DNA of 64,000 bases from Bdellovibrionota bacterium FG-1. GTDB lineage: Bacteria; Bdellovibrionota; UBA1018. A model generated the notes under the pieces. That model had not been told where the DNA came from, searched no databases, and saw only the letters and a program-made list of their open reading frames with translations. Positions within the stretch are counted from its first letter, which is position 1; the number at the start of each line of letters is the position of its first letter. The stretch covers positions 14,372 to 78,371 of the forward strand of contig JBBCAW010000023.1 in the NCBI GenBank assembly GCA_051382295.1. Direction: 5' to 3'. The translations under genes and the position numbers were made by a program. Shown one piece after another: positions 6,486 through 63,797 of the stretch.

Positions 6486-6738
6486 GGATCAGTTGAGCCT
6501 CCAAAACAGGGCCCAACCGCTTCAACTGCCGGCCTGAGGCAGTAAACCGGTTTGAGATGGCGATGAACACGCTTTTCTGCCGTCCAGCGGCAGTAGATTG
6601 GGTTCAGTGGGGGGACAAAGACTTCTACTGCCGGTGCGAGGCAGTAAACGGAGCTGGGGTGAGGGTCAGCGGCCTGAGCTGCCGTCTAGCGGCAGTATAT
6701 CCCACTGGCTCAAAGAAAATGAGCACCGACGTCGGTGT
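6486..6738 (-). repeat. 51-bp-period hairpin array, locus A (4 units) with palindromic leader
   Basis: CTGCC-N7-GGCAG begins at 6526, 6577, 6628 and 6679 (period 51) with different linkers. Perfect palindrome CACCGACGTCGGTG at 6724-6737. Confidence 0.9.
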
Positions 6739-6749
6739 CATCAAATACG

Positions 6750-7790
6750 TCAAATAGGAGAAAACCCCGGAATCCCAGGGGTTCCTGATTTATCCCAAGT
6801 CTGGCAACGGTCATCCACCGGGTTCTTCGACTTGATCGCTTGCACTGCACGGTTCGTTTCGCACTCATTTAAGTCATAGTAACAAACACTTGCCGGATCA
6901 TTTCCTAGACTGTAGGCGAAACAAAAGAGTGAAGCCACACAGCTCGAGGGATCTTTGTCAAAATAATCTGGCTTGATTCTCTCTTGCTCACATTCAGCCT
7001 GACCACCGTCAAAACACTTCACGGTCTCAATTCGATGAGTCAGTCGGTAGAAAAAACACGAAGCGATTGAAGGAGCGGGTGCAGCGGGTTTTAAACCAGG
7101 AAAAGTCGAGGGCAGCTCAATTCCCTTAACAACGGCCGGAAACAAATCGGCGGACGTTGGGACAAAAGGCCCTTCCAGTTCACCCAACATAAAATCTTTT
7201 TGATAACTTCCGCCAAATTGATATTCTAGAAGATGAACGAGTTCATCTGGCGTCAACGAAGTCGAACCTTTGATCCACTGCTGGGTTCCACAGGAGTGCA
7301 CACAAGCCTGCATCTCATCGCCAAATCCGTTGCCTGCACAGAAGTCCGTGCAATTATCCACATTTGCATAGACTCTCATCGTAGCAACGACTGAATTAAT
7401 TGCGGTGAGATCAAGATCGATCTTATCGCCCGCGCTACTATCCGAAAGGCAGTCATCCGCTTTCCACTGGCCATCCTTCAGATTCCAGTGAGTATTGAAA
7501 TCTCCTGTTTCCGCTACATCGCCCCCGTGCCCAGTAGTGCCAGAAATATCGACGTCTTTTTTGGAACATTTTTGATGACCAGAAGCATCCTGAACATAAA
7601 GATCGCCATGACCGACGACCGCGACATCCATATTCACAGTCTTCGCGTGCGAAGCCAGCATATGGTTAGGAAATATCAGCCGGCCACTCATATTAATGAC
7701 CAAAGAGTCGGTGTCCGCGCATGCGCCCACAAGAGCACTACTCAAAAGGGCCACGGATCCTAAAACGGAAAAACTGAATGATCTGGTCAC
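6750..7790 (-). CDS. Cys-rich hypothetical lipoprotein
   Basis: GGAGGT RBS before GTG 7790; signal peptide with lipobox LVGAC; many Cys residues; Pro/Ala linker. Confidence 0.7.
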   Translation of the reverse strand: MTRSFSFSVLGSVALLSSALVGACADTDSLVINMSGRLIFPNHMLASHAKTVNMDVAVVGHGDLYVQDASGHQKCSKKDVDISGTTGHGGDVAETGDFNTHWNLKDGQWKADDCLSDSSAGDKIDLDLTAINSVVATMRVYANVDNCTDFCAGNGFGDEMQACVHSCGTQQWIKGSTSLTPDELVHLLEYQFGGSYQKDFMLGELEGPFVPTSADLFPAVVKGIELPSTFPGLKPAAPAPSIASCFFYRLTHRIETVKCFDGGQAECEQERIKPDYFDKDPSSCVASLFCFAYSLGNDPASVCYYDLNECETNRAVQAIKSKNPVDDRCQTWDKSGTPGIPGFSPI

Positions 7791-7889
7791 GATACCTCCA
7801 ACAAAATGACGCACGTAGTTAATTTAGTAACCCATTAACACACTAAATATAAATAGTTAATAATTATTTTCAGAAATCAAACGACCTTG

Positions 7890-7989
7890 GGATCAGTTTA
7901 GCCCTCAAAAAAGGGCCTAGCTGCGTGAAAAGAGGCTTAACTGCCTGCCCGAGGCAGTAAATTCCACTGCCGGGAAGGATGAGCGCCAA
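7890..7989 (-). repeat. hairpin-repeat family locus B (1 unit)
   Basis: CTGCC-TGCCCGA-GGCAG at 7941-7957. The flank GGATCAGTTTAGCCCTCAAAAAAGGGCC is homologous to 6486-6513. Confidence 0.8.
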
Positions 7990-8143
7990 TCGCGGCGCCA
8001 ATATCGTGAGTGGTAAATGCTTTATAGATGAAGTTGAGGCCAAGTTCTCGGTAGAGAAAATTTTGGAATCGAGTACCAAAGTTGCCTGGCCTAGCAGCAA
8101 GAGACATACAGAGCTGAGTATCTTTGTTCACACAGAGTTCCAT
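7985..8143 (-). pseudogene. 5' fragment of shikimate dehydrogenase-like (SdhL/HI0607 type) gene
   Basis: NKDTQLCMSLAARPGNFGTRFQNFLYRELGLNFIYKAFTTHDI matches the SdhL N-terminus. Similarity ends after about 53 aa, where repeat locus B begins. Confidence 0.85.
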
Positions 8144-8251
8144 AGTGCACAGTTATCACCCAGGCGAGGGCTTTAAAAGCCGCCTTTTTTTGCTCACACC
8201 TTAAAATGATAACCCACTCCTAACCCTGGATCCGGGTCAAAACCCAAGTGA

Positions 8252-9238
8252 CTATCGAGCAGGAGAGGAAGAAGGCGCTTCGCCGCTAGGAGTCCACTGA
8301 ACGCTTGGATCAACGTCTTTTGGAGTCCTGGATTGACGTGATCTATGGCTCGACACGACCGAAAGCTTTTCGGAGGTGGACACACTGCTGGCTCCCTGTC
8401 CTGCTAGAGTGCTCTCCCAATAGCTTTTGCAACCATCGCTCGTCATGCGTCCCTGAACGTAGTCCTTCGGGCTCAAATAACGCTCTCGGTGGCCATAAAC
8501 TTCCTCAAAGGTATATTGATGTCCATCACTTCTCGGAGTGGTACCGATGCTAGCACAAATCTCGTTTCTACAAACCTGAAGCTGATGATCCTCATCATGA
8601 AGTGTAATGCTCTGATGGGCGACTGGGCTATCCTGCTTCCATAACTCAAACGTTTTGCATACATTACTATGCCTAGTGAGAAAGCCTTCGTCAAAATCTT
8701 CACCTCTTTGGCAAATGCGTCTACGGATTTCACCCGACCTCAGAACTTCATCTTTATATCCAACATAATCTTCTTCCAGATTAGCAAACGACTCCATTTC
8801 GGGCGTGAGACAAACAAGCGTACTCCTGCTCACATCGTCCTCATGCAATCGATGCCATTTACCGGTCGGCCCACAATCTTTCCACTCATGCTTTTTCCTG
8901 AATTTCAAAAAACGCTCAAGAAGCTCCGATTGGGAGATCGTACCGTGCTCGACAAACTTGATTCGTTCGAGATCAAACGGAGTAAAGCTCTTCTGATAAT
9001 CATTGAGGACAGCGACGACTTCACGGGCATGAACCTCGTCCTGAAATCTCTGATCCCATTGCTTAAAATTTGTCTGATATTCTTGGCTCGCCTTTTCTTG
9101 AATCAACTTGCAGATCTCCGGTGAGGGCCCATTCAAGACCTCCGGCATCCCTTGAGCCAAGCTCGTCCTGGCCCCTACGCCCATTTCTAAAACAATCAAA
9201 ATTCCAAACAACAAAAAAGCCTTTTGATTAGTACTCAT
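8252..9238 (-). CDS. hypothetical secreted protein
   Basis: 328 aa ORF with signal-peptide-like N-terminus, paired Cys and a Ser-rich tail. Confidence 0.7.
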   Translation of the reverse strand: MSTNQKAFLLFGILIVLEMGVGARTSLAQGMPEVLNGPSPEICKLIQEKASQEYQTNFKQWDQRFQDEVHAREVVAVLNDYQKSFTPFDLERIKFVEHGTISQSELLERFLKFRKKHEWKDCGPTGKWHRLHEDDVSRSTLVCLTPEMESFANLEEDYVGYKDEVLRSGEIRRRICQRGEDFDEGFLTRHSNVCKTFELWKQDSPVAHQSITLHDEDHQLQVCRNEICASIGTTPRSDGHQYTFEEVYGHRERYLSPKDYVQGRMTSDGCKSYWESTLAGQGASSVSTSEKLSVVSSHRSRQSRTPKDVDPSVQWTPSGEAPSSSPAR

Positions 9239-9286
9239 AAACTACCCACCCTTCTTTAAAAAATAAAACCGATACTGAGGAAGGTA

Positions 9287-9301
9287 GCAACTCTTGCGCC
9301 A
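9287..9301 (-). promoter_or_regulatory. sigma-54 (-24/-12) promoter
   Basis: Minus strand reads TGGCGCAAGAGTTGC (GG-N10-GC), about 50 bp upstream of the 9238 start. Confidence 0.65.
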
Positions 9302-9419
9302 TGCACTGGAATTGGATTTTTGTCTTTTAACCTCAGACGTTATGACTCTCTTTGTGTCCGGATAAACACAGATCAGTCCCTCCGCTTTACTTTACAGCTG
9401 TCGAAATCTCAGACAGGCA

Positions 9420-10193
9420 TCAACTGCCCGCGGCCGTAAATCCCTCGGGGCTGCTGTTCCGTTTTTGCAGAGCCTCAGTAATCTTCTGAGCCACGGCATT
9501 AGCCCAATCACGAGCAATGGGGACGCCAATGTTCACGCGCTTTCCCTGAACCACGGCAAATAGACCATCATAATGGATCCCATCCCCCCCCTGCTCGGGG
9601 TAATGAGTCCACTCTCGACTATCGATCAAAGCGCAATCTCGCTGAGCGGCGATGTCTTTAAACACGCCATAAAATCCCTCTTGTTTTTCGGCGGAAATAA
9701 ACCGCTCTGAGGGCGGTCCGATCCAAAAGCAGGAACTACCAGCCTCTTTAATCGCACCGAACATGCGGTCGAATTGTTTGCGAACCTCTTGCACCGAGGC
9801 GCGATAAAGATTAGCTCCCAACGCGACGATCACCGCTGTCGGGTGATTCTGAGCCAAGAGCGTTTTAAGAAGTGGCGTCGAGGCGGTCTGACTGATTCTT
9901 GCCGGTCCTTGAATAGGATGCTGATAGGCACCACAAGCCGTGCCCCGACCACTAAAATAGTTGATGGGCGACGCACCGCAAATTCCATAAGTAGCCACCT
10001 GAGCATCCGGGATTTGCCGAAGCGCGATGTCCAAAGTTTGACCAAACGTGCCAGCCGTATGGGAGTCCCCCACAACTAGCAAACTCGGGCCCGCCCCATC
10101 GTGAAGAGCCGTCTCGGCTTGCAAAGCCCCCGAAAAAAAAGCCAAAAAAATGACAGACAGCACCGAGAAAAACATCGTTTTTGAACTCGCCAT
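9420..10193 (-). CDS. secreted SGNH/GDSL hydrolase
   Basis: LVVGDSH, ALGAN, WIGPP, DGIHY motifs; signal peptide; GAGGAG RBS before ATG 10193. Confidence 0.85.
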   Translation of the reverse strand: MASSKTMFFSVLSVIFLAFFSGALQAETALHDGAGPSLLVVGDSHTAGTFGQTLDIALRQIPDAQVATYGICGASPINYFSGRGTACGAYQHPIQGPARISQTASTPLLKTLLAQNHPTAVIVALGANLYRASVQEVRKQFDRMFGAIKEAGSSCFWIGPPSERFISAEKQEGFYGVFKDIAAQRDCALIDSREWTHYPEQGGDGIHYDGLFAVVQGKRVNIGVPIARDWANAVAQKITEALQKRNSSPEGFTAAGS

Positions 10194-10256
10194 TGCGCCA
10201 AACTCCTCTTTCTCATTCCATTTTACATGATAATGGATTTGAATAGGAATCCCTCT

Positions 10257-11405
10257 ATGAACTTTGATGAAACTCCGATTCAAAAAGAACTTCGCGAACT
10301 TACTCGACGCTTTGCCCAAAAAGAGCTGGTCCCCATCGTCGAACAGGACGAGCACGAGGAGCGGTTTCGACCTGAACTCATTCAGGCCTTGGGCGAGTTG
10401 GGCCTCACCGGCATTCCCGTACCCGAGGAATTCGGGGGAGCAGGACTGGGTTATCAAGAATATGCAGTCGCCATCGAAGAGATCGCCAAGGCCAACACCG
10501 GCTACGCCATTAGCGTATCGGTGACGGGACTCCCTCAAGTCATCCTGAATCTTTTCGGCACCCCCGAACAGAAAAAGAAGTTCATCCCACCCCTCGCCAG
10601 CGGCCGTCATATCGGCGGGTTTAGCTTAAGCGAAGCCTCTTCCGGAAGTGATGCCGCAAGCTTACGTACCACTGCCACCCGCCAAGGAGATCACTATATC
10701 CTGAATGGCACCAAACTTTGGTGCACCCAGGGCGATATCGCCGAAACCATCATTGTCATGGCGCGCACCGGTGCGGCCGGCGTCTCCCCTTCCAAAGGAA
10801 TTTCGGCTTTTATTCTCGAAAAAGGAATGCCGGGTTTTAGCTACGGCAAACGTGAGAAAAAAATGGGGTGCCACGTTTCGCACACCATGGAACTCGTTTT
10901 GAACAACGTGCGCGTGCCCATTGAAAACAGGGTTGGAAAAGAAGGCGATGGTTTTAAGGTAGCCATGACCGCCCTGGATAGTGGGCGCATCACGATTGGC
11001 GCAGGTGCCGTGGGAATCGCGCAAGGTGCCTTGGATTGCGCGGTCACTTACTCCAAGCAACGCGAACAATTTGGCAAACCCATTGCGGAGTTCCAGGGAG
11101 TTTCGTTTATGCTCGCCGACATGGCCACGCAAATTGCAGCAGCGAGACTGATGGTTCATCGCGCAGCCTGGCTCAAAGATAATGGCCAACCCTTTTCGAT
11201 TGAGGCCGCAATGGCCAAGCTTTTTGCTACCGATATGGCCATGAAAGTCACTACCGACGCCGTCCAAATCTTGGGCGGTGCGGGCTACACGCAAGACTTT
11301 CCCGTGGAGCGGTACATGCGCGAAGCCAAAGTCATGCAGATTGTCGAAGGAACTAATCAAATTCAACGAGTCGTCATCGGAAGATCACTGACTCAAGCCA
11401 ACTAA
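10257..11405 (+). CDS. acyl-CoA dehydrogenase
   Basis: LSEASSGSD, NGTKLW, REQFGKPI, QILGGAGY, IVEGTNQIQR. Confidence 0.93.
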   Translation: MNFDETPIQKELRELTRRFAQKELVPIVEQDEHEERFRPELIQALGELGLTGIPVPEEFGGAGLGYQEYAVAIEEIAKANTGYAISVSVTGLPQVILNLFGTPEQKKKFIPPLASGRHIGGFSLSEASSGSDAASLRTTATRQGDHYILNGTKLWCTQGDIAETIIVMARTGAAGVSPSKGISAFILEKGMPGFSYGKREKKMGCHVSHTMELVLNNVRVPIENRVGKEGDGFKVAMTALDSGRITIGAGAVGIAQGALDCAVTYSKQREQFGKPIAEFQGVSFMLADMATQIAAARLMVHRAAWLKDNGQPFSIEAAMAKLFATDMAMKVTTDAVQILGGAGYTQDFPVERYMREAKVMQIVEGTNQIQRVVIGRSLTQAN

Positions 11406-11419
11406 GGAGACTCACTCTT

Positions 11420-12754: not shown

Positions 12755-12804
12755 CTTCATTCAGCCGTTGACGCTCGGAAGAGCTAGCGGTCATAATTAA
12801 GCCT

Positions 12805-13767: not shown

Positions 13768-13801
13768 TCGTTGCGCCTGATCAACAAACCTTGATAACGG
13801 A

Positions 13802-15700: not shown

Positions 15701-15724
15701 AAAGCATCAAGAAGGGTCTGAAAA

Positions 15725-20246: not shown

Positions 20247-20345
20247 AACACCGACGTCGGTGTTCATTCTTTGAGTCAATGGGCCCCGGTGGGATTTACT
20301 GCCGCGCACAGGCAGTTGGTGCAACTCACTCCGCTGACACCGACG
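20247..20345 (+). repeat. hairpin-repeat family locus C (1 unit) with 18-bp palindrome
   Basis: AACACCGACGTCGGTGTT at 20247-20264; CTGCC-GCGCACA-GGCAG at 20299-20315; leader homologous to locus A. Confidence 0.88.
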
Positions 20346-20444: not shown

Positions 20445-20478
20445 ATGAAAGATGAAAGATGAAAGATGAAAGATGAAA
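20445..20478 (+). repeat. heptamer tandem repeat (ATGAAAG) x ~4.9
   Basis: Read directly from the sequence. Confidence 0.95.
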
Positions 20479-20541: not shown

Positions 20542-21171
20542 ATGAAGTCCAACAAACTGTTTTCTATTTTGGGTGTAGCTGTCCTCGCAAGCCTCGTCAC
20601 GCAGTCGGCGTATGCAAAAGAACCGTCGTGTTTGCCGTTTTATGCGGCAAGGGCGAGGGGCTCCAACCCAGGCTTTGCCGGAGCCGCCTTCGTCCCGGCA
20701 AGCTTGGGAGGATGGGTGGCTGGTGTATTTGCCGGTGGCCCAGCAGCGTTTGGTGCCTTGACCCTGATAGGTGCGGCAGTCGCGACCCCTATCCTGATTT
20801 CCGAAACGATTCGAAAAAACGAAGCTTCTGAAATGGGATGGATGATCTATGAGTCTTATTTGGGTGGTGGCAAACACCTGGCGAAACTCTTTGACAAAAT
20901 TAAAGGCGATGTTCCTACTCTAATTTATGCGCAACTGGCGCATCTTTTTAAGGTCGCGGATCAAACGCAATATTTCTGCAATGTAAAACCCTACTCTTTC
21001 AATGACCTAAAAAAATCGATTCGCAAAGGAACTTTTCAGCGGGATGTCAGCGCCATTGAACAGACCACTCAACCTAAGCCAGCAGTGGTGGCTGCACAGA
21101 TCAAGGTATTGAACGAAGTCCAACCCGGTTTGACTCCGATCCAAACTACGACCGCAGTGGCTGCAAAATAA
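20542..21171 (+). CDS. hypothetical secreted protein
   Basis: AAGGAG RBS; signal peptide ending AYA; Gly/Ala-rich hydrophobic segment. Confidence 0.8.
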   Translation: MKSNKLFSILGVAVLASLVTQSAYAKEPSCLPFYAARARGSNPGFAGAAFVPASLGGWVAGVFAGGPAAFGALTLIGAAVATPILISETIRKNEASEMGWMIYESYLGGGKHLAKLFDKIKGDVPTLIYAQLAHLFKVADQTQYFCNVKPYSFNDLKKSIRKGTFQRDVSAIEQTTQPKPAVVAAQIKVLNEVQPGLTPIQTTTAVAAK

Positions 21172-21190
21172 ATAGAGTCTATGTCAGACA

Positions 21191-21219
21191 GCGGGGAGAC
21201 CGGATACTCCCCGCGTTTT
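21191..21219. terminator. intrinsic terminator-like hairpin between convergent genes
   Basis: GCGGGGAG-N8-CTCCCCGC followed by GTTTT. Confidence 0.6.
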
Positions 21220-21220
21220 A

Positions 21221-21853
21221 CTACCAATCCTCATCAGGCTTATACTCAAGGCGAGCAGTGCCGTACCGACCCATCAGATCATTTACAATAAAAGCATAAA
21301 CATCCGGGAACCGATCACTTCTAGCGTCCATCGAATGGAGATCAAAGATATCATCCGCAGTATTCAAAACCTCCTGAAAATCGACCAACTTTTGATCAAG
21401 AGCCGCAATGACATCCTGTTTATCCCTTTTGCGAGGTGTATTTGAAAACGCTGAAAATAGCTTTGAAGCAATCACATCTCTGGGGGCAAGATATTGAACC
21501 GAAAGACAAGCGTAATCAGGGCCAAACGAAATCCACTGAGGTGACCGAGGAAGAAAGACAAAAGCAGGTGCCACAAATTGGAGATAGTAACCATTAATCA
21601 GGATCTTTTCACTGCCAAATTCGGCCAGCAAATTCTCAACTATTTTTTTATTATCCGCAGGCTTATGCTTACCTTGAACCACAAGTGAGTCAATATCGGC
21701 AGTGCCCACCGTGTCAGTCATTCCGCCAATCAAAAGTGCGCTTTTTCCAATTATCTTGAGTTCAAATTTTGTTTTGACCAGCAAAGATCCAAATTTTTCA
21801 GTGAGATGCTCATTCATCCTACCAAGGAAGCCCACTATTTCATTTTTTTGCAT
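21221..21853 (-). CDS. DUF6036-like nucleotidyltransferase
   Basis: IIGKSAL...TADID (G-[GS]...DxD pattern), then DVIASKL...RDKQD. Confidence 0.7.
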   Translation of the reverse strand: MQKNEIVGFLGRMNEHLTEKFGSLLVKTKFELKIIGKSALLIGGMTDTVGTADIDSLVVQGKHKPADNKKIVENLLAEFGSEKILINGYYLQFVAPAFVFLPRSPQWISFGPDYACLSVQYLAPRDVIASKLFSAFSNTPRKRDKQDVIAALDQKLVDFQEVLNTADDIFDLHSMDARSDRFPDVYAFIVNDLMGRYGTARLEYKPDEDW

Positions 21854-22541
21854 TCAGACACTCCTGAACAAAATTGGCGATATCAAAAACATCAGATGCC
21901 AGCGATTGTTCATTCTCAATAAGTTCATGCACCCCATAAACTTCCTGCGCGATAGAAATAAGGTTTCGAAGTTGCCATTTTGCCCTCGTAAAGTGATACT
22001 TTTCATTTCTTCCCTCTAGTTGGGCAATTACCCTAATACATAATGTGGATTGATCTACGACTTTTTTTATAAGAAATGGATTATTTCCAATCATCGCAAA
22101 AATTCGGTCCACATTAATTTCCGTGTGCGCTGCTTGAAAAATAAGGGCGGTACAAAACCCCTTATGAAGCCTATCGTCTCCAATAAATCCAAGCGATTGA
22201 GCAAATACTTCTTCAAAAGAAATCGCCTTAAGCACAATCCCGGCTGGCTTACTCAGAAGCACAGCACCAAATCTCACCAAATGCCCAATGAGCTCTTTAA
22301 CTCCGGACGTCTCTTCCTCCTCACTCAATCCGCGAAAAAAATCAGTAATCGGGACATTCAGCCTTTTAGAAAGGATCGCGATATTACCTCCAGAAAGCAC
22401 GCCCTTACAATTTTCAATATAAGAAATCTTAGCCTGAGAAACCCCCAATATTTTTGCGAGGTCCACAGTCGTAAGGCCCTTACTTTTTCTAATGGACTTC
22501 AAATTCTGACTCAGAATTTTTTCATAAGGATGACTAGCCAT
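21840..22541 (-). CDS. XRE-family HTH protein with C-terminal extension
   Basis: NLKSIRKSKGLTTVDLAKILGVSQAKISYIENC HTH; overlaps the downstream gene start; AT-rich. Confidence 0.85.
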   Translation of the reverse strand: MASHPYEKILSQNLKSIRKSKGLTTVDLAKILGVSQAKISYIENCKGVLSGGNIAILSKRLNVPITDFFRGLSEEEETSGVKELIGHLVRFGAVLLSKPAGIVLKAISFEEVFAQSLGFIGDDRLHKGFCTALIFQAAHTEINVDRIFAMIGNNPFLIKKVVDQSTLCIRVIAQLEGRNEKYHFTRAKWQLRNLISIAQEVYGVHELIENEQSLASDVFDIANFVQECLNAKK

Positions 22542-22654
22542 TTTTAAATTATACAATAATCGATCATATTATACAATATTGCATAATTATTCGCTATCTA
22601 TCTAATTTAACAACATATTTCAGCATGCAAATTCATACTATTTATTTTTTCCGA

Positions 22655-22748
22655 CGCTATTGCGCAGGCCTCTCAACCTAAGCCGGCACTGGTCGCTTCA
22701 CAGTTTGACTTCGACCCAAACTACGACCACAGTGACCGCGAAATAAAT
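22655..22748 (+). repeat. diverged duplicate of the 3' end of the 20542..21171 gene
   Basis: Aligns with 21051-21173 (CTCAACCTAAGCC...TTTGACT...CCAAACTACGACC...AAATAAAT) with a 29-nt internal deletion. Confidence 0.88.
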
Positions 22749-22931: not shown

Positions 22932-23049
22932 TCGGTGTTCGTTCTCTGAGTCAACGGGATTTACTGCCGCTAGACGGCAGCTCGAGACGCTGACCCGGGA
23001 GTGAACGAGGTTTACTGCCGCGCCCAGGCAGTTGGTGCAACTCACGCCG
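22932..23049 (+). repeat. hairpin-repeat family locus D (2 units, 51-bp period)
   Basis: CTGCC-N7-GGCAG at 22964 and 23015; only the TCGGTGTT half of the leader palindrome is present. Confidence 0.88.
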
Positions 23050-43282: not shown

Positions 43283-44545
43283 GTGTCACGCGATCTTATA
43301 GGCCCCCTCACTGACCAGCAAAAAGACCTCTCGGCAAGTCGTAAAATGTGGATTTCGCGCGATATTCATGCGGATTTTGAAAAGACCATGAACTCCTCCC
43401 TCATTAAAGTCATTATGGGAATTCGTCGGGCGGGAAAATCCACCCTCTGCACCCAGGTCGGCCCTGATTCGGCAATTGCTTATTGCAACTTTGACGATGA
43501 ACGCTTGGCTGCAATTACCTCAGAAGACCTGAATGCGATTTATGAGACACTCCTCCAGATCAAACCGCAGGCCAAATTTTTTGTTTTTGATGAAATTCAG
43601 AACGTTGAACATTGGGAACTCTTTATCAACCGTCTTAAACGCAAAGGTCTCAATATTTTGGTCACTGGAAGCAATGGAAAGCTTCTCAGCCTAGAGCTAG
43701 CCACCCATCTGACGGGTCGACAGCTGACCATCGAACTCATGCCGTTTTCGTTTGGAGAATACCTTTGTTTTCAAGGCATCCCTTTGCCTGCAAGTCTCAG
43801 TCAGGTTTCGACCGAAGAGCGCGCCGAGATCCTTCGGCATTTTCAATGGTACTTCGAAAATGGAGGCTTTCCAGAGGTGGTCAGCGGCGAACACCCCGGC
43901 CCTTATCTTCGTGAACTTTTCGACAAAATAGTGAGTCGCGATATCGCGCAAAGGCACGAAATACGAACCCCTAGAATGATCAAACAGCTTGGATTGTTTC
44001 TCATCCAGCAGTCCGGCTCCCTCACTAGCCTCAAAAAAACGCTGGTTTCATTTCAATATCGCAGCGTCAACACGCTTCGAGCTCATATCTCCTACATACA
44101 GGACTCCTACCTCCTGTATGAAGTTTGTGCCTATTCCCACAAAATCCGAGAACGCTCGACCTCTCCCAAAAAAAATTACGCCTGCGATACGGGAATGATG
44201 GCAGCCCTCCACACCAAACCCACGCCAGACTGGGGCATGCGCTTTGAGACTTTAGTTTTTTTACAGCTCCGACGCACTTACCCTGAGATCTTTTACGCAA
44301 AGGGCCCCGATTATGATGTCGACTTTGCGATCACCCAAGACCGTAAAATTTCGCGACTCATCCAGGTTTGCTATGACCTCAACGCGCCAGAAACCTTGGA
44401 GCGTGAACTTCGTTCCCTCATTTGTGCAGCCAAAAAATTTCCCAACGCAAGATTACAGCTCATCACGCGCAACGACGAACGCATCATCGAACAAGAAGGG
44501 ATTAAAATAGAAATCGTTCCTGGCTGGAAATTTTGTCTCACCTAA
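43283..44545 (+). CDS. AAA_14 ATPase with DUF4143
   Basis: GIRRAGKST, FDEIQ, VTGSN, LTGR, GGFPE, DVDF...LIQV. Confidence 0.9.
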   Translation: MSRDLIGPLTDQQKDLSASRKMWISRDIHADFEKTMNSSLIKVIMGIRRAGKSTLCTQVGPDSAIAYCNFDDERLAAITSEDLNAIYETLLQIKPQAKFFVFDEIQNVEHWELFINRLKRKGLNILVTGSNGKLLSLELATHLTGRQLTIELMPFSFGEYLCFQGIPLPASLSQVSTEERAEILRHFQWYFENGGFPEVVSGEHPGPYLRELFDKIVSRDIAQRHEIRTPRMIKQLGLFLIQQSGSLTSLKKTLVSFQYRSVNTLRAHISYIQDSYLLYEVCAYSHKIRERSTSPKKNYACDTGMMAALHTKPTPDWGMRFETLVFLQLRRTYPEIFYAKGPDYDVDFAITQDRKISRLIQVCYDLNAPETLERELRSLICAAKKFPNARLQLITRNDERIIEQEGIKIEIVPGWKFCLT

Positions 44546-46525: not shown

Positions 46526-46539
46526 CGCCCCGATCCCAC

Positions 46540-46645
46540 GTGGGGGGCTCCCGGAAAAAGTGAGGGGATCCGCGCGCGCAGGATGCGCTTTTTGCGCGGA
46601 GGCCAAGGAAGGCCGACCCCGACATCTTTTACCGGGAGCCCCCAC
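46540..46645. repeat. 106-bp REP-like composite stem-loop between convergent genes
   Basis: Arms GTGGGGGGCTCCCGGAAAAAG and CTTTTACCGGGAGCCCCCAC enclose inner hairpins GCGCAGGATGCGC and GGCCAAGGAAGGCC. Confidence 0.75.
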
Positions 46646-54499: not shown

Positions 54500-54628
54500 C
54501 CGAGATCCCCCAGATACTTTTCGTCGAAAAAAGGGAATTCGTGAGGAGAATGTGATCCGATTTTCAATCACGTTCACTGGATATCGAACCAAACTCCAGC
54601 AAAAACATCGAGAAAAGCGCGATAACGC

Positions 54629-54644
54629 TGGCACTCAATTTGCT
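54629..54644 (+). promoter_or_regulatory. sigma-54 promoter (near-perfect consensus)
   Basis: TGGCACTCAATTTGCT. Confidence 0.75.
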
Positions 54645-54715
54645 CAATGGGTCCCTGCCAAATCGGACAGGAAAGATGGAGCTACCCCCTTTTAACAAGA
54701 AAGGAGGTAACCCCG

Positions 54716-54871
54716 ATGAAGAATAAAACACTTGGTCGCAAGACCAACGACTATTATTCGTCTCGGATTCGGCTAGAAAAACTTAAACTAAAATCTTGGC
54801 GACTCTATGTCTACGCTAAGATTTTAGTGATTCTCGCCGATGCAATATCCTACTATCTAAGACAGCCGTGA
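54716..54871 (+). CDS. 51-aa basic/hydrophobic small protein
   Basis: AAGGAGGT Shine-Dalgarno at 54701-54708, 7 nt before ATG; sigma-54 promoter upstream. Confidence 0.6.
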   Translation: MKNKTLGRKTNDYYSSRIRLEKLKLKSWRLYVYAKILVILADAISYYLRQP

Positions 54872-54988
54872 GGAGTGCTCTGGGTGCAGCGCAACCGGAG
54901 TTCTCATGGATGGGAGCTGTCCGATTTGCATTGAAGGAGGGGGCTTTTACGGTTTGACAGGGCGACGGTCTCCGCTTACTCAGGGGGG

Positions 54989-55573: not shown

Positions 55574-55581
55574 GTGGGGAC

Positions 55582-55755
55582 GGTTTCCGGTGAGTTGTTG
55601 CACGAAAGCAAACTTCCTGTTTTTACACAACTTTCGCCATCCCCCTTTATAGCACCTCGTGTGCTACAAGGGCCCATTTGGGCACCCGGGCTTCTCGGAC
55701 AATCCTGTCCTCGAAGGGCTGTTGTGATTTTCGCGCAACAACTCACCGCGAAACC
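55582..55755. mobile_element. MITE-like element with ~27-bp terminal inverted repeats
   Basis: Left GGTTTC-CGGTGAGTTGTTGCACGAAA versus reverse complement of right GGTTTCGCGGTGAGTTGTTGCGCGAAA; non-coding interior; no target-site duplication seen. Confidence 0.6.
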
Positions 55756-55783
55756 TTGTAAATACAAGAGGCAATTTCCACTT

Positions 55784-56638: not shown

Positions 56639-56643
56639 GCCGA

Positions 56644-59112
56644 TCAATCCCCGCTTGCGGAGCCAGCGAAACCAGCGTTGCGTTGAGCGGCGCCGATGTT
56701 TTTGATGTCGCGGTTAAGGCGGGTGGAGATGCCGTTACAAGTAGAAGATCCGATTTCGCCACTATTTTTAAGACCAGCATTATAGTTCGTCAACTGTACA
56801 TCATCATCTTTTAAGCCTCCCCGAGTTTTTTGAATCACTTTTCGTCTTTCAGCAGTCTCCCCACATCCCCCAATCCCCGCATCCAAACTCGAGTCCATAT
56901 TTCCCCGATCATCATCGGTCATTCCAAAAGTCGACATATCTCCCATGTAATCTTTTAGTTTCTCGATTGACGAAATCTTATTGCAAAAAGCAGTTGACCA
57001 CTGGCAATTCCCACTTTCGAGCTTATCAATATCCTGCTGCGCGATTCGGAGTTTGGCCTGGATAGCCTGCCCCGCACAATGCGCCTTCTGCTGCGCCAGC
57101 CGATCCTTAGACTCCTGCAACGGTCTGACCTTAGCATTCAAATCCGTCACACCCTGCCCTAGTCCTTTGAGGGACTCCGAAAAATCACTGCCGTGCACAT
57201 CGAGCATTTTGGGGGTCATTTGCGCCCCAATCAATTGAAGCGCACTGTTGGGAGCCTTGGGCAAGCCGTTCTCGTCATATTGCATCGGCTCGCCTTCGAC
57301 TTTAGGAATACTGATTCCACCGGCGCCCAAAGAGGCCAAAGCCGTATTCAGAGATTTCAATTTGTTGGTCAAAGCCTGGCTCTGCGCATTCATCATACTC
57401 GCCATGCGCTTCGTAAAATTGTCCGTACTTTGCACCGACTGCTGAATATAGGTCTTTTTGAAAGCCGCCACGCGAATCTTTTCTTTTTTAAGGTTCACAT
57501 CCACTTGCTGATACTTGGCAATGCAACCATCAATCCCGGAGCACTGAAAACTAATGTCCGTCCGGCCTTGCGCATCCACTCCTTTAATCAGTTGCGTGAC
57601 CTGCGCCTGCTTCACCCTTCCGTAGAGCACCCCATTGAGATTGCGCTTCAAATCCTCCAGGCAAGCAATCTGGACATTCGGGGTTTTGTCTTCACATCCT
57701 GACGTCGTCATGGGCAGATGCATCCCCGTTAAAACCGTCATCGCGCGCTCATATTGACCGGCGTAGCTACTCAACATCGTATTAGCCGATTTTTGAAGAT
57801 TATCGGATTGCGTATCCATTGCATTCATTTGCGTTTTAATCGGCCCGGACGCCATATTTTTTTCAATGCTGACCGTGTGTTGGGCCTTTTGATAGCAATA
57901 GGTCGTCTGCTTTTTGACAAATTCATGAACCTGAAAACCCGGTAAATCGAATTTAGCCAACTCCGTTCCATAGGCCTTTTCGATATCATCCGGGGTCATA
58001 ATCGTCGCCGCAGGGGCGGACATATCCACTTGGGGTGTTTGCCCTTGCTGAGTGGGTGCCTGTTTTTGAGGTGTTTGAGCAAAGATTTTGCCAAGCAGAC
58101 CCCCGAGTGCCCCCGTTTTCCCGGCCGCAGTATTACCCAGTACAGTATTCGGATCGAGCTTTCCGTTACTGGTTTTTTGAAATTGCTCATACCGGCATAA
58201 AAGATACTCCGGGCCAGAAACGTTCGGCCCGTTGGGTTTACATTGAAAGCCCGTCTGCGAATCTTTTTGAAAACATTCCGAGGCCAGGCCCATCGTCCGA
58301 TTGTCCACAAATTCTTTGAGCGCCTGCTTGGCGACGTCCACCGCCTTCATATCATTTTTGATTTTTTGAACGGCCCCCGGAATTCCTTTTTCCGAATCCA
58401 TCGACGACATCGCCGTCTTGAGATCATCACGTACTTTGAGCAACCCCTCAGCACCATTACCCCCTTCGCCACCGTTTCCACCCAAACGCTTCAAAACCTC
58501 TTGATCTTCCGACTCACGATCCGCGATCACGCCATCAAGCGTAGCCACATCTTTTTGCATCCGCTGAATATTGCTTTGATAGGCGCTCTGAACCGACGAA
58601 AGCTGTTGCGCCAGCATATCCGCCTGACCACTCATGCAACTCAGTTCGGATTTAATCGCGTCAAACTTCCCTTTTTTACACTGAATCGTCGCCAACGCCA
58701 TATCAATAGCCAGGCCTTTAGACTTGATCATGTTTTGATCGAGAATGCCGCCGGGTGCGATGTTCTCGCAGGTAAGTCCATCCACACTCGGCCCTTCATC
58801 TGAACCCGTGCAAACCGCGTTGATACCGTAACCCATCGAAGCATTCGGCGCCGTCGCCACGCCCCCTTGGCCCTGCGCGAGATTACTCAGGGATTGGAGC
58901 GCCTGATTAGCGGCATTTTGGACTTGGCTATTACAACTTTGAAACGAAGTCCCTTGGCCCGCGATTTTAGCCATGTCGAATTGGGGGGGCAAAGTCGGAT
59001 CAAAACCCGCGGCAATCGCCGTGGGATCCGTGGGATCCACCGCTTGCGCCGATGTAATCCCCAACGCAACCCAGATCGACAAAACACAAAGCGTCTCTAT
59101 GATTTGGCCCAT
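56644..59112 (-). CDS. large secreted coiled-coil, Cys-containing hypothetical protein
   Basis: Signal peptide ending AQA; Gln/Ala/Lys-rich helical composition; GGGGAG RBS before ATG 59112. Confidence 0.72.
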   Translation of the reverse strand: MGQIIETLCVLSIWVALGITSAQAVDPTDPTAIAAGFDPTLPPQFDMAKIAGQGTSFQSCNSQVQNAANQALQSLSNLAQGQGGVATAPNASMGYGINAVCTGSDEGPSVDGLTCENIAPGGILDQNMIKSKGLAIDMALATIQCKKGKFDAIKSELSCMSGQADMLAQQLSSVQSAYQSNIQRMQKDVATLDGVIADRESEDQEVLKRLGGNGGEGGNGAEGLLKVRDDLKTAMSSMDSEKGIPGAVQKIKNDMKAVDVAKQALKEFVDNRTMGLASECFQKDSQTGFQCKPNGPNVSGPEYLLCRYEQFQKTSNGKLDPNTVLGNTAAGKTGALGGLLGKIFAQTPQKQAPTQQGQTPQVDMSAPAATIMTPDDIEKAYGTELAKFDLPGFQVHEFVKKQTTYCYQKAQHTVSIEKNMASGPIKTQMNAMDTQSDNLQKSANTMLSSYAGQYERAMTVLTGMHLPMTTSGCEDKTPNVQIACLEDLKRNLNGVLYGRVKQAQVTQLIKGVDAQGRTDISFQCSGIDGCIAKYQQVDVNLKKEKIRVAAFKKTYIQQSVQSTDNFTKRMASMMNAQSQALTNKLKSLNTALASLGAGGISIPKVEGEPMQYDENGLPKAPNSALQLIGAQMTPKMLDVHGSDFSESLKGLGQGVTDLNAKVRPLQESKDRLAQQKAHCAGQAIQAKLRIAQQDIDKLESGNCQWSTAFCNKISSIEKLKDYMGDMSTFGMTDDDRGNMDSSLDAGIGGCGETAERRKVIQKTRGGLKDDDVQLTNYNAGLKNSGEIGSSTCNGISTRLNRDIKNIGAAQRNAGFAGSASGD

Positions 59113-59221
59113 AGTACAACTCCCCCGATTCAGCATCCTTATAGTGTACCGGTTGAATTCTCTTTTTGGAAATGCTGCTCTTGATAAGAATTATCGAAGA
59201 AGAAATGGGGCTTCCGACGAG

Positions 59222-59237
59222 GCTAACCTTGCGCCAA
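59222..59237 (-). promoter_or_regulatory. possible sigma-54 promoter
   Basis: Minus strand reads TTGGCGCAAGGTTAGC (GG-N10-GC). Confidence 0.45.
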
Positions 59238-59543
59238 GATTCAGTTATTTTCCACATGACCGCCATTTAACCCTCACCCTGGCGGCCGATGCGGCGTCGA
59301 AAACCCGAATCAATTCAAGGGTCCAATGAAAAATTCAAGGAATGACCGGTATCGGCCGAAAGGACTTCATCAAAACGCACCTGCGAAAAAGATGGCAGTA
59401 AGTTATTGTTAAATAAGAATAATTAAGAAAAATAATTTTTGACTTTTTTTGTCAAGATTTTGTGCGTACGATCTTATTTATCTCAACACTGTGTATTTGC
59501 ATTGACCGTTAATAAACCCGTTGTACGTTTTAGGAGGAAAAAA

Positions 59544-61460
59544 ATGAATAAATCAAAGAAAATGTCCCCGAATTGTTGGCAAACGACCGCTCTCACTTCA
59601 ACCGTGCTTGCCGCCATGGCGATGAGCACGGGCTGTGGCAGCTCGGCGACCCCGGTCGCTGCAACCGATCTATCACTCAAAGGAACCTTTGCCGCCACTG
59701 CCGCATCGGCAAGAATGGCGCAAAGAAGCCTCGCTTCACGGCTCAACCGCGGAGATCAAGAACTACGCTATCTCATTGGAGATGGGGCGCAAGCAACCGC
59801 AAGCATCGACTACACCGCGTACTCCCTTCAGTGCGCAACCTCTGACGTGCCCCCTGTTTTGGTCTCGGGCACCATCGGATCGGATGGCAAGTTCAATATC
59901 GCCATTGCCGGTGGCGGAGGCAAAGCCCTCAACTGTAACGTTCTGGACGCCACCGGAGCCGTCGCTGCGGCACTGATGCTATCGGATTCAGCCAAAACTG
60001 ATATGAACGGTAACCCTCAAGTCAATGGCTCTCCAGCCTTCAAAGCCGGGACCACGACATTAGGGGATATCACGCTCGACCTCACTACCGGTGATGCCAC
60101 CGTACCAGCGGCTCAGCCTGTCGACGAGAGCGGCGCGTCCGCCGTGATTAGTGGTGCAGCGGCCCTCGCAGGAGGCACACCGTTTGACCCGACCGGGACT
60201 TGGAAAATCACCGCCTATGATGGGACGCTTCCCACCGGAGTCACGAGTACTTGCCCCGCGCAAGTGCCAGGACAACAGAATAACAGTGGCTGCAATGGTC
60301 CTCCAGCCGATATGAATCTCTACCTCAACCGTCTCCAAGGAACCAATGTTAGCGATAGCAGCACGGTGTACGGCTTGCAGATGTGGCAAGACAGCTCGGC
60401 AGCCAACGCTCCGATCGATTCGTTCACCGCTTGCGGTGAAATGACGGGTTTGGCCGCTGCGGATCTCGCCAAAGCCGGAGTAGATCTGAGTTCGTATGGA
60501 GCCAAAAGTGGTGGTTTCACATTTCCAGCCACCATCGCGGATCCCTACGCCGGCTCAACGGCCACGATCACGGAGGGCTACAAACTCAGCACCGCTAAAG
60601 CGCAATTTACCATGCAAAATTGCGTCAATAAGACGTACTCCGGTAAGCCCGTGTTTGTTTGCGGACCTGATACCGCAGGAAACGGCAGCCCCGGCGGTCG
60701 TTATCAAGCAAGCCTCGGCGGCGGTTGCGTCAATGCCGCTGGCACGGCGGTCGACCTGGGGAATAACTGGAGCCTAGTCACCTGGGGAAGTTGCACCAGC
60801 GTTGCAACGCCAGGCCTGACTGGCTTCACGACCAGCAGTTGTGCAGGCACCTATAGCGGTGCCGCGATCACCTGCACCAATGCTTCAGGCGTGTTTAATG
60901 ACGTCGATCTCGCGACTTCACCTGCTCTTCAAACTGACCAACAAGGACATACTTGGGGGGCAGCGTTCAACTTCAGCGGAGTCGCCCCAGCCATGACCCA
61001 AGGTCAGCTCTGCTCAGTAGTGACGGATGGACTCACGAAAGCCAATTGCTATGCGATGTATTACGAACAACACATCGGGCATGGAGCTTCGGGCTGTTTG
61101 CCTCGAGTCGACATGGACTGGACTGCCACGGATCCAGCTAAGTTCGCTACCACGAACTTTAGGCCTCAATCCTTGGTCTTCATGGACAAGCTCACCTACT
61201 CCGATGCCAACACGGCTTCGATGTTGACTGAGCAATTCCAACATGAAGGGGTTCAGGTTCAGAACTCAAGTCGCCAAAACACTTGGGTCAACTGTGCCGT
61301 GGTCGAAAAAGGCGGCATGTCCTTCACGAAGGTCAGCGATACCAAGATCCTCGCGACTTACGTGTCATCGACAACGACCTCGACCCTCGACCAACCTGCC
61401 TGCGTCGCCACTTATGGCTCAGCCAAGTCGAAGTTCGTCTTCTACTTGATCAAGCAGTAA
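59544..61460 (+). CDS. Ala/Thr/Gly/Cys-rich surface lipoprotein
   Basis: AGGAGG RBS; lipobox STGC; many paired Cys; terminator follows. Confidence 0.8.
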   Translation: MNKSKKMSPNCWQTTALTSTVLAAMAMSTGCGSSATPVAATDLSLKGTFAATAASARMAQRSLASRLNRGDQELRYLIGDGAQATASIDYTAYSLQCATSDVPPVLVSGTIGSDGKFNIAIAGGGGKALNCNVLDATGAVAAALMLSDSAKTDMNGNPQVNGSPAFKAGTTTLGDITLDLTTGDATVPAAQPVDESGASAVISGAAALAGGTPFDPTGTWKITAYDGTLPTGVTSTCPAQVPGQQNNSGCNGPPADMNLYLNRLQGTNVSDSSTVYGLQMWQDSSAANAPIDSFTACGEMTGLAAADLAKAGVDLSSYGAKSGGFTFPATIADPYAGSTATITEGYKLSTAKAQFTMQNCVNKTYSGKPVFVCGPDTAGNGSPGGRYQASLGGGCVNAAGTAVDLGNNWSLVTWGSCTSVATPGLTGFTTSSCAGTYSGAAITCTNASGVFNDVDLATSPALQTDQQGHTWGAAFNFSGVAPAMTQGQLCSVVTDGLTKANCYAMYYEQHIGHGASGCLPRVDMDWTATDPAKFATTNFRPQSLVFMDKLTYSDANTASMLTEQFQHEGVQVQNSSRQNTWVNCAVVEKGGMSFTKVSDTKILATYVSSTTTSTLDQPACVATYGSAKSKFVFYLIKQ

Positions 61461-61492
61461 GTCAAACGTTCGCTTAGTTCGCATATTATGAA

Positions 61493-61537
61493 AGAGGGCC
61501 CGCTTTCCAGAAATGGAGGGTGGGCCCTCTGGTTTTT
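61493..61537. terminator. intrinsic terminator between convergent genes
   Basis: AGAGGGCCC(G)...(T)GGGCCCTCT followed by GGTTTTT. Confidence 0.75.
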
Positions 61538-62603
61538 ACGCGCGCTCAGCCGCGACTTCGCGAATCGCGCTCACGATTTGATTCAACTGCGGCACACTTG
61601 CCATTTCGAGCGTATCCGCCAGACCCACTCCTGGCACAAAGGCACCCGCCACCAAGCGGGGACGAGCCTCGAGCTCATAGAACAACTCATCGACCGTCCG
61701 ACGAATCAAGTGCTCGCCAAAGTTAGTGACTTCGGTCTCTTCATTGACATAAATCACCCGACCCGTTTTGCGAACGCTCTCCGAAATCATTTCCCAGTCA
61801 TAAGGCCAAAGAGTACGAAGGTCGATGACCTCGACCGAAAGCCCTTCAGCCCTCAGCAGATCCGCCGCCTGCACTGAAAGAGACAAAGTACGGCCATAAC
61901 TCACCACCGTGAGATGATCCCCCTCGCGTACTTTTTTAGCCTTGCCGATTTCTACGGTAAAATCCGTCAAACCTTCGGGCCAATGCGCCTTCCAAGTTTT
62001 TTGCCGCGGGTCCGTGAGGATCGGCATATCGATCATCTCTTTGAGCTGCTTTTCGTCTCCAGACTCACCCGGAATCAACTCTTGCCCACGCACACGCAAA
62101 AGCGCTTTGGGCTTCAAAAACATCGTGGGATTCGGATCTTTCAGGCACGCAATCATCAAACCATACGCATCCAAAGGCGTGGAAGGCATCACGATTTTCC
62201 AACCTGGAATATGAGTCATCGTCGCATCGAAAGAATGCGAATGATAAATCGAACCGCGAATACCACTCCCCACCGGAGTCATGATCGTCATCGGCAGATT
62301 CCAATCACCCACCGTCGCCCAACATTGCATGCCGGCAAGCTTCAGGAGGTCAATGGTGTTGTAAATGTAATCGCAAAACTGAATTTCGGCCACGCAACGA
62401 GTGCCCGCCAAGCCGAGTCCCATCGCCGCGCCCACAATACCGCGTTCATCCAGCGGGGCGTTCCAAGTCGTTTCAAGACCTTGCGTGACGGTAAAAACAC
62501 CCCCCAAAGGAGGGCCGACGTCTTCGCCAAAAATATTTTTAAGGCCGAGATTTTTTTCTCCATAATGGAGCGCCATGCGAATGGCCTGTGCCATGTTTGC
62601 CAT
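61536..62603 (-). CDS. 2-oxoacid (probably branched-chain) dehydrogenase E1 beta subunit
   Basis: GEDV...GGVF, PLDE.GIVG, EIQFCDY, YHSHS, IDLRTLWP. Confidence 0.92.
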   Translation of the reverse strand: MANMAQAIRMALHYGEKNLGLKNIFGEDVGPPLGGVFTVTQGLETTWNAPLDERGIVGAAMGLGLAGTRCVAEIQFCDYIYNTIDLLKLAGMQCWATVGDWNLPMTIMTPVGSGIRGSIYHSHSFDATMTHIPGWKIVMPSTPLDAYGLMIACLKDPNPTMFLKPKALLRVRGQELIPGESGDEKQLKEMIDMPILTDPRQKTWKAHWPEGLTDFTVEIGKAKKVREGDHLTVVSYGRTLSLSVQAADLLRAEGLSVEVIDLRTLWPYDWEMISESVRKTGRVIYVNEETEVTNFGEHLIRRTVDELFYELEARPRLVAGAFVPGVGLADTLEMASVPQLNQIVSAIREVAAERA

Positions 62604-63608
62604 TTACCAGTACCTGCCCTTCTGACCGGCGTAAGTGTGATCATAGATCGTCGAGGAATCAGGGAAGGGCTCGTGCTTCACCTTCTGCGAGAGTTCCAGC
62701 ATCTGCTGATTATACTGCTCCTTGATTTCGTCCATTTTTCCGCGAGTCAAAACTCCCGCCGCCTCGAGCTGAGCTTCAAAGGTGGTCACACAATCTTCTT
62801 CATCCTTGGCGTAATTGCAGCCCGTCGCCGAGCTGTGCCCGTAAAGACGCGAAACCTTGCATTCCATCAGGACCGGCTTGCGAGTGGTGCGGATGTATTG
62901 CATCGCTTCTTGGACGGCAAACCAGGATTCTTCAACGTCATTGCCGTTAAAATCCATCGTCTTCATCCCAAAGGCTTTGCCCCGATCACTGATCCGTTTT
63001 TCGCCATGCTGGGTGCTCGCAGGAGTGGAAATCCCCCACTGATTATTGGTCACAAGCATGAGGAGCGGAAGCTCGGCCTGGGGACGACTTGCCCAAATCA
63101 GGCATGAAGTGAAATCGCCTTCCGCCGTGCCGGCATCCCCCCCGTTCACGATGGTAATCCCGGTTCCGCCATGTTGGCGCTGCGCGATTCCAGTCCCGAT
63201 CGCCGTGAGATACTGGGTTTCAATGGTAGAAGTAACGGGTACGACGTTCCACTCGCGACGCGAAAAATGATTGCCAAAGTTTCGCCCCCCCGAAAAGGGG
63301 TCGCCGGCAACATTTTTCATCTGGCGAATGGCATCCATCGGATCCATCCCTAGCGTCGTCATGATTGGGCTCGATCGGTAATGCAAATGCATGAAGTCGT
63401 GATCCAATCCCTGGCCCTTGTTGATTTGCATCGCCAACGGGATTTGAAAAGCTTCTTCGCCAGGACCGCCAATCCAAAAATAGCCGTCGGACTGCTTATA
63501 CATTCGGATCAGACGCTCTTCCAGAACCCGAGCTTTGACCATAAAATCGTGAATTTGAACAAGAACCTTGGGCTCAAGACGGAATTTTTTGGACATGGAT
63601 TTCCCCAT
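62604..63608 (-). CDS. 2-oxoacid dehydrogenase E1 alpha subunit
   Basis: TPP motif GDAGTAEG...NNQWGIS, HYR, RLYGHSS. The longer ORF to 63821 is read-through of a repeat. Confidence 0.92.
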   Translation of the reverse strand: MGKSMSKKFRLEPKVLVQIHDFMVKARVLEERLIRMYKQSDGYFWIGGPGEEAFQIPLAMQINKGQGLDHDFMHLHYRSSPIMTTLGMDPMDAIRQMKNVAGDPFSGGRNFGNHFSRREWNVVPVTSTIETQYLTAIGTGIAQRQHGGTGITIVNGGDAGTAEGDFTSCLIWASRPQAELPLLMLVTNNQWGISTPASTQHGEKRISDRGKAFGMKTMDFNGNDVEESWFAVQEAMQYIRTTRKPVLMECKVSRLYGHSSATGCNYAKDEEDCVTTFEAQLEAAGVLTRGKMDEIKEQYNQQMLELSQKVKHEPFPDSSTIYDHTYAGQKGRYW

Positions 63609-63683
63609 AGATACCTTTTGGAACGAACACACATAACTGATCTTACCCAGTTTCTCAAGGGTGGGGGTGGAAATGCAGGGGGA

Positions 63684-63797
63684 CTCGGACTGAGTCGGGT
63701 TTACTGCCGCGCGGAGGCAGTTCGGCGCGTTCGCCTCCGACTGAGTGGGGCCTACTGCCGCATGGAGGCAGTTCGGGGCGTTCGCCTCGGACTGAGT
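63684..63797 (+). repeat. hairpin-repeat family locus E (tandem 51-bp unit x ~2.2)
   Basis: CTGCC-N7-GGCAG at 63704 and 63755; CTC(G/C)GACTGAGT at 63684, 63735 and 63786. Confidence 0.9.

Follow-up and report, generated by a model that had tools for sequence, protein, structure and literature searches.

In a 64,000-nucleotide window from Bdellovibrionota bacterium FG-1 (GenBank assembly GCA_051382295.1, contig JBBCAW010000023.1, positions 14,372 to 78,371 of the forward strand), ten copies of a short dyad lie at five intergenic loci, A to E, and adjacent copies are always 51 bp apart. They belong to a family of non-coding repeats that is dispersed between genes and is specific to one genome among those searched. 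The family separates its constraints cleanly, with invariant half-sites, a free center, a fixed spacing and drifting linkers. Our tentative explanation, held at rather less than even confidence, is that the arrays are helically phased platforms for binding of double-stranded DNA that have been rearranged by recombination, with a putative protein partner and a presumed cellular role. The evidence for the family comes from a single uncultured genome and consists of sequence only.

An earlier note on the window had described ten hairpins at the five loci with a constant 51-bp distance between adjacent units, and this account held in the window sequence for positions, strands and all five of the adjacent-unit distances. 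Exact CTGCC-N7-GGCAG dyads begin at 6526, 6577, 6628, 6679, 7941, 20299, 22964, 23015, 63704 and 63755, ten versus 0.05 expected, and spacers of any other length between 3 and 15 yield 0-1 dyads each. The whole assembly (4.44 Mb, 158 contigs, 97.7% complete) harbors 77 such dyads versus 1-7 for each other spacer length in the same range. These fall into 40 clusters, from which six singletons with no flank consensus (C3:21577, C31:32806, C58:17123, C63:5644, C72:10210 and C106:12881) were dropped before all counts. The retained set comprises 34 loci and 74 cores, with one core at 16 loci, two at 6, three at 2 and four, the maximum, at 10; a profile search of the genome revealed two further, degenerate loci at C9 and C62. 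The resulting genomic density is about one locus per 125 kb, and the one per 13 kb given in the note describes a local hot spot only. Across the genome, adjacent cores are spaced by 51 bp in 39 of 40 cases and by 52 bp in one, and the linker measures 34 bp in 39 of 40.

The core consensus is CTGCC-K-N5-M-GGCAG, a 17-bp dyad in which two half-sites, CTGCC-G/T, surround the free center. A looser symmetric frame extends about 13 bp outward from the core on both sides (T-Y-T-A before and Y-W-S-R after it, and YSAR/YTSA at 10-13 bp on each side), and the flank consensus keeps a single direction throughout each array. Complete elements, termed type I, run in the order leader, core, L1, core, L2, core, L3, core, trailer, where L1-L3 are linkers of 34 bp each with a sequence specific to their position; L1 is duplicated in two four-unit loci. 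Leader and trailer are each found at 20 of the 34 loci. A perfect palindrome of 18 bp opens the leader; with the T-rich tail behind it, its hairpin was flagged as terminator-like, and the palindrome is also found solo: allowing up to three mismatches it occurs at 23 genomic sites, 11 of them away from any counted core, compared with 0-1 sites for five shuffled palindromes. Two solo palindromes (C31:74762 and C31:75247) lie within a direct repeat of ~90 bp that flanks a single 123-aa gene. Leader insertions occur in 4 of 16 aligned rows, unlike the near-fixed core spacing. The leader that the note had recognized as common to A, C and D, with a degenerate version in B, is real, whereas E, to which it had assigned a leader part, is leaderless, its upstream stretch being half an ordinary linker; E-like copies consist simply of tandem units that begin and end in half linkers. 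The trailer, the leader palindrome and the position-specific linkers had not been noted before. The loci of the window, with the segments that they bracket, are as follows.

6722-6739, minus strand: leader palindrome of locus A, an 18-bp dyad giving a terminator-like hairpin and then a T-rich tail
6696-6721, minus strand: remaining leader of locus A, similar to the 3' half of a linker
6526-6695, minus strand: array of locus A, with cores at 6679-6695, 6628-6644, 6577-6593 and 6526-6542
6645-6678, 6594-6627 and 6543-6576, minus strand: linkers L1, L2 and L3 of locus A, 34 bp each
6483-6525, minus strand: trailer of locus A, unusual, its best match being the locus B trailer (77% over 43 nt)
6750-7814, minus strand: gene of 354 aa with no Pfam or NCBIfam match, lying between the direct repeats B (upstream) and A (downstream)
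7887-7990, minus strand: locus B, with a degenerate leader, a single core (7941-7957) and an A/B-type trailer
20247-20345, plus strand: locus C, with a perfect leader palindrome (20247-20264), a leader carrying a 10-nt insertion, one core (20299-20315) and a C/D-variant trailer
20542-22748: segment bracketed by loci C and D
20542-21171, plus strand: gene of 209 aa in this segment, no family match
21221-22556, minus strand: DUF6036 and HTH_3 gene pair in this segment
22655-22748: remnant copy of the 209-aa gene, covering its 3' end, in this segment
22932-23049, plus strand: locus D, with half a palindrome and leader, cores at 22964-22980 and 23015-23031, and a C/D-variant trailer
63684-63797, plus strand: locus E, leaderless, with a half linker, cores at 63704-63720 and 63755-63771, and a partial linker

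A short run of 7-bp repeats lies downstream of locus C at 20447-20478, and the end of a multicopy insertion sequence (IS) at 63874-64000 on the plus strand, 80 bp past locus E; this IS has 19 copies at contig ends, in two sequence variants.

Selection appears to act on the arms and on the spacing. In arrays grown from exact seeds, the arms carry three mismatches in 580 positions, compared with 227 substitutions from the class consensus in the loops and linkers of 34 units, or ~16% of non-arm positions. One period past either array end, a site within three mismatches was found at one locus only, and hidden decayed units are therefore few. Over 56 flanking positions no two loci are more than 87.5% identical, which argues that the arms are maintained and not freshly copied. 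Mirror positions around the cores are symmetric in consensus, and they pair no better than base frequencies predict; when 51 of the 74 cores were tested, 280 of 500 shuffles scored as high for mirror pairing. The innermost arm positions are G..A in 30 cores, G..C in 27, T..C in 16 and T..A in one, hence mismatched in 46 of 74, although these pairs largely track unit position and are not treated as independent. Predicted folds of the ten four-unit loci share no common fold. The suggestion of a structured RNA in the earlier note is thus not supported for the repeated unit and finds a trace in the leader hairpin alone, where covariation is weak (eight double changes, with 4 of 500 shuffles as high, in 16 related rows of which some are degenerate). 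Comparison with Rfam, as the note had proposed, returned no match at gathering score in the window, and a search of five loci at E<=1 gave only a tRNA.

The period is also a multiple of three, and one sense/antisense frame pair is poor in stops (9 of 731 codons in each frame versus 20-76 elsewhere), as might be left if the arrays were a decayed gene whose protein repeated every 17 residues. This origin is scarcely credible: synonymous changes make up 30 and 41 of 133 in the low-stop frames versus 31-39% in the other four, a result that largely refutes coding selection, substitutions are spread evenly over codon positions, and even the four-fold degenerate arm positions are invariant.

Comparison of loci suggests how the family spread. 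In eight of the ten four-unit loci, linkers at the same position in different loci are 76% identical (84 comparisons), whereas linkers within an array are 52% identical (24 comparisons); divergence within the array thus came before its dispersal as a unit. A four-unit block with leader and trailer was copied to many sites, with units lost or duplicated, and the shorter copies are deletion products. Among same-contig pairs less than 15 kb apart, three of four (A/B, C/D and two loci on C89) are co-oriented direct repeats whose trailers are reciprocal best matches among the 34 loci; the fourth pair is inverted and unrelated. C84 and C39 appear to be alternative haplotypes of one region with ends in common, the shared block stopping at the 5' edge of the last core; past this breakpoint C84 carries three more cores with Fic and toxin-antitoxin genes, and C39 a leader and another gene, so that the locus has four cores in one and one core in the other. 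At C18 and C61, hybrid linkers cross over within the linker, for which homologous recombination or slippage is a better fit than a core-specific recombinase. The non-autonomous mobile element inferred in the earlier note is borne out as far as copies spread as a block and not in its other marks: outer ends are ragged, as judged from 18 flanks on the 5' side and 25 on the 3' side, with no terminal inverted repeat, four aligned paralogous flank sets gave no clean empty site against which a target-site duplication would show, and no cognate transposase or near-identical locus pair was found. AAA_14, toxin-antitoxin, Fic, ORF6N or IS genes adjoin 11 of 23 scanned loci, although these 23 were picked after a first look at the neighbors and the genome is rich in such genes, with 44 AAA_14 and 7 PemK. 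The 4.4-Mb genome also contains 34 DUF4423 genes and 27 tyrosine-recombinase matches beside the 44 AAA_14 ATPase genes, with window examples at 1135-2460 and 43283-44545. The wealth of DUF4423 genes is in keeping with a member of Bdellovibrionota.

We propose that the arrays provide phased sites for a candidate dimeric DNA-binding protein. Since 51 bp would correspond to about five helical turns, bound dimers might line up along the same side of the helix, within reach of one another, and this would account for spacing being under selection while linker sequence is not; mismatches at the innermost arm positions are expected if the half-sites are read separately. Reshuffling would be due to ordinary recombination, not to a dedicated transposase, and homologous copies beside accessory genes may act as portable crossover points for the gain, loss and swap of those genes. 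The cellular role might be nucleoid organization or insulation at gene ends. Several observations weigh against this proposal. A pitch of 10.5 bp per turn puts 51 bp at 4.9 turns, slightly under five, and a few repeats in phage contigs carry the same core at spacings of 31-32 bp or less. The leader harbors a terminator-like hairpin with some compensatory change. With genes called by a simple open reading frame rule, the element shares the direction of its neighbors in 17 of 22 co-directional gaps (p=0.017), and the upstream gene points into the element at 20 of 29 classifiable loci versus a 43% background (p=0.0075); such a bias is expected of an RNA but not of a symmetric DNA site. The core breakpoint is one case among six assembly bubbles, a single-stranded hairpin recognized by an enzyme would equally show invariance without covariation, and no binding protein or partner gene for the arrays was found.

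The sense-strand bias and the position after stop codons would be accounted for if the family acted as RNA, that is, as a terminator-like leader hairpin followed by one to four evenly spaced stem-loops in the 3' or intercistronic parts of transcripts, where they would either recruit an RNA-binding protein with sequence specificity or shield the end of the mRNA. The compensatory changes in the leader hairpin and the transcription of the 52-nt repeats of Bacillus coagulans reported in PMC8625621 point the same way. We nevertheless consider this somewhat unlikely, since the cores lack covariation, the four-unit loci fold differently, independent hairpins need no fixed unstructured linker of 34 nt, five of the 22 co-directional cases are antisense and four loci lie between divergent genes; the leader test is weak as well. 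An unlikely explanation in our judgment is a non-autonomous element resembling repetitive extragenic palindromes (REPs) and bacterial interspersed mosaic elements (BIMEs), moved by single-stranded cut-and-paste by a histidine-hydrophobic-histidine (HUH) enzyme, similar to the Y1 REP-associated tyrosine transposases (RAYTs), that recognizes the invariant hairpin. Ragged ends and an apparent lack of target duplication agree with the chemistry of HUH enzymes, two other genomes contain a dispersed solo palindrome with the same arms (54 and 21 copies), and the genome contains an expanded RAYT-like Y1 family of seven full and three partial matches, up to 92-96% identical at the DNA level (full genes at C41:21394-22062 and on C1, C33 (two), C61, C98 and C130; partial ones on C12, C72 and C109). 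However, no core flanks the seven full Y1 genes, the nearest array being ~1.2 kb off, and the Y1 family scores far under the REP-transposase and IS200 cut-offs, the two proteins tested reaching 19 bits versus the cut-off of 80 of the REP-associated transposase model. The cores also lack inverted doublets, a replication-strand bias (17/36) and near-identical recent copies, and the GTAG foot expected on the 5' side of the hairpin is missing, GTAG/GTAA lying instead across the dyad's 3' end. A cognate RAYT gene was not found, and a missing copy is possible at an assembly completeness of 97.7%. The Y1 copies themselves look like recent duplications, their similarity stopping almost at the gene boundaries, and they have no evident hairpins at their termini.

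Inverted arms around a 7-bp center resemble tyrosine-recombinase sites, and the cores might then be targets of a site-specific recombinase that moves accessory-gene cassettes, as in an integron-like system or one akin to the neisserial dRS3 repeats. The direct-repeat pairs A/B and C/D bracket short accessory segments, the C39/C84 breakpoint falls at a core, and accessory or IS genes are neighbors at nearly half of the scanned loci. We find this quite unlikely. The 7-bp centers vary freely, which would hinder exchange by such enzymes, both hybrid linkers cross over away from the core, and the neighbor scan was selected post hoc in a genome rich in the same genes. Within the genome, PF02371 (IS110 transposase) has no match, the best integron integrase reaches 80.5 bits versus a cut-off of 265, and no true core lies near the 27 tyrosine-recombinase genes. 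Other partners were examined. An IS1-like gene abuts one locus and was rejected, two of its three copies having no element; three GIY-YIG genes are present, with no core at the two loci read; and the single four-helix-bundle gene in the genome is not at an array, nor do the Myxococcota arrays described below have one except for one remnant identified by eye. Very unlikely, finally, is a selfish or neutral minisatellite without host function, in which gene conversion or repair templated by the hairpin keeps the arms uniform. Confinement of the family to one genome among those searched, the presence there of at least three other private repeat families, and the difference in unit number between haplotypes agree with it, but conversion tracts would need to fix both arms and the spacing at 34 loci while leaving the linkers and the central 5 bp untouched, and hairpin repair restores symmetry, not one common sequence.

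The closest published class, one that the earlier note did not name, is that of the constant-length tandem repeats of 51-53 nt described by Subirana and Messeguer (PMC8161180). Those repeats are species-specific, mostly comprise 4-10 units with short motifs and their reverse, are described from Firmicutes only and have no known function, the proposals being a DNA-bound protein polymer or small RNAs (PMC8161180). The family resembles them in its period, its intergenic, non-coding and species-specific occurrence, a short motif with its reverse in each unit, and short arrays differing in length between strains, the last likeness resting on the one case of C84 versus C39. In a Bacilli genome (3 of 251 genomes matched the motif), a dyad with 10-bp arms and a 7-bp center recurs at a period of 52 bp, the same architecture as in the family. 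Local amplification in that class leaves units matching at 83-92% in Bacilli examples, however, whereas linkers within an array of the family are 52% alike; the family never exceeds four units, has many single-core loci, and carries its leader and trailer along with the block. The class also calls for at least four similar units, while four cores are present at 10 of 34 loci and TRF detects five loci. The family thus works like the 51-53-nt satellites, but as a frozen, leader-bearing four-unit block that is probably outside Firmicutes. A literature search with limited coverage of subscription journals turned up no report of such repeats from these phyla.

Other known classes share single traits with the family. 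According to PMC3049150, pneumococcal BOX elements (boxA-boxBn-boxC) are likewise dispersed and combine a leader, a varying number of tandem modules and a trailer, but have terminal inverted repeats and a proposed IS mobilizer, ISSpn2, where the family has ragged ends and position-specific modules, each with an invariant dyad. Neisserial intergenic mosaic elements (NIMEs; dRS3 plus RS) also have inverted arms, a free center and alternating spacer families, and NIME arrays differ between strains, flank variable genes and are proposed recombination anchors; RS elements range from 19 to 214 bp (PMC1797815), unlike the fixed 34-bp linker, and an IS110-family enzyme is lacking in our genome. REP, BIME and REPIN sequences with their RAYT (TnpAREP) are, according to PMC6006769, short, clustered extragenic palindromes often located after genes, and RAYT-like HUH genes are present in our genome; the 5' GT(A/G)G foot, the inverted doublets and the REPtron (a repeat-flanked RAYT gene) are absent from the family. 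The view in the earlier note that this is a dispersed non-coding family of leader-plus-array form, distinct from classic BIMEs and REPINs, is therefore supported. Unlike those of clustered regularly interspaced short palindromic repeats (CRISPR), the linkers recur by position between loci, cas genes not having been searched for.

Relatives, all of other genera, were searched by pattern, BLAST and covariance model in 40, 400 and 115 genomes, and gave background or marginal matches only. Across a further 400 genomes of the phylum the core shows no enrichment (0-5 copies versus 0-18 for controls), and 115 genomes of the order returned only marginal matches, two by BLAST and three by covariance model. 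Phage and plasmid collections gave no family match, and the 53 matches in viral contigs are mostly in-frame coincidences with a few shorter-period repeats. A scan of genome collections for two cores 51 bp apart returned seven loci, including true arrays in Paenibacillus and Myxococcota. The Myxococcota genome G407 has seven 51-bp array loci of up to ~19 units. When any spacing of 36-66 bp was allowed, matches came from 7 of 351 Myxococcota genomes, namely G407 (51 bp), G823 (52 bp, two loci) and five with single pairs at other distances; since the G407 and Paenibacillus arrays were found by demanding 51 bp, G823 is the sole independent observation. Another phylum, sampled in 231 genomes, gave five single pairs and no array. 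The family model matches the Paenibacillus and Myxococcota arrays at the cores alone, and homology is not claimed. Hexamer microsatellites flank five of the six 51-bp arrays read in G407, one of which lies beside the apparent four-helix-bundle gene remnant. The solo palindrome of G409 (54 copies) and G411 (21 copies), which belong to different phyla, is ~20 bp long with a nearly fixed center and is inserted among other intergenic repeats; no partner gene was seen in 14 regions read.

The 51-53-nt repeats of bacteria have been puzzling, with their fixed length, free sequence and lack of a known partner. Together with the 51- and 52-bp dyad arrays of the two Myxococcota genomes, the family suggests that this class reaches beyond Firmicutes, and the clean separation of its constraints defines exact mutations by which a protein lattice and an RNA could be told apart. 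If the arrays do anchor accessory-gene exchange, they would represent a new route to genome plasticity. A bolder conjecture, and a long shot, is that the cores are recognition sites of an enzyme that uses phased arrays as landing pads for accessory cassettes (toxin-antitoxin, AAA ATPase, secreted proteins), and that a single gene-shuffling system, widespread but so far undescribed, has left the 51-53-nt satellites of this lineage, Firmicutes and Myxococcota as its footprint.

Other private repeats share the genome with the family. One of ~110 bp, seen in the window at 46535-46645 on the plus strand and in 37 genomic copies, has a conserved GC-rich center and long arms that are variable yet complementary, an apparent case of strong covariation, which makes it a better candidate for a structured RNA or single-stranded element than the 51-bp family; it has no Rfam match in the window, and two copies adjoin 51-bp loci (C3:124914 and C9:35038). 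Another, of ~38 bp, occupies 21 sites (e.g. C93:7287 and C23:13167) with a terminal hairpin between A- and T-runs; two copies abut tRNA-like sequence and one lies directly 3' of the C93 array. A repeat of 300-450 bp with a small basic open reading frame is both dispersed and locally tandem, and its copies, which adjoin two loci of the 51-bp family, were located as follows.

C22:72204-73405: 300-450-bp repeat
C5:62195-63520: 300-450-bp repeat
C23:68924-69299 (window about 54550-54930): 300-450-bp repeat
C62, C30, C89, C130, C12 and C83: further copies of the 300-450-bp repeat

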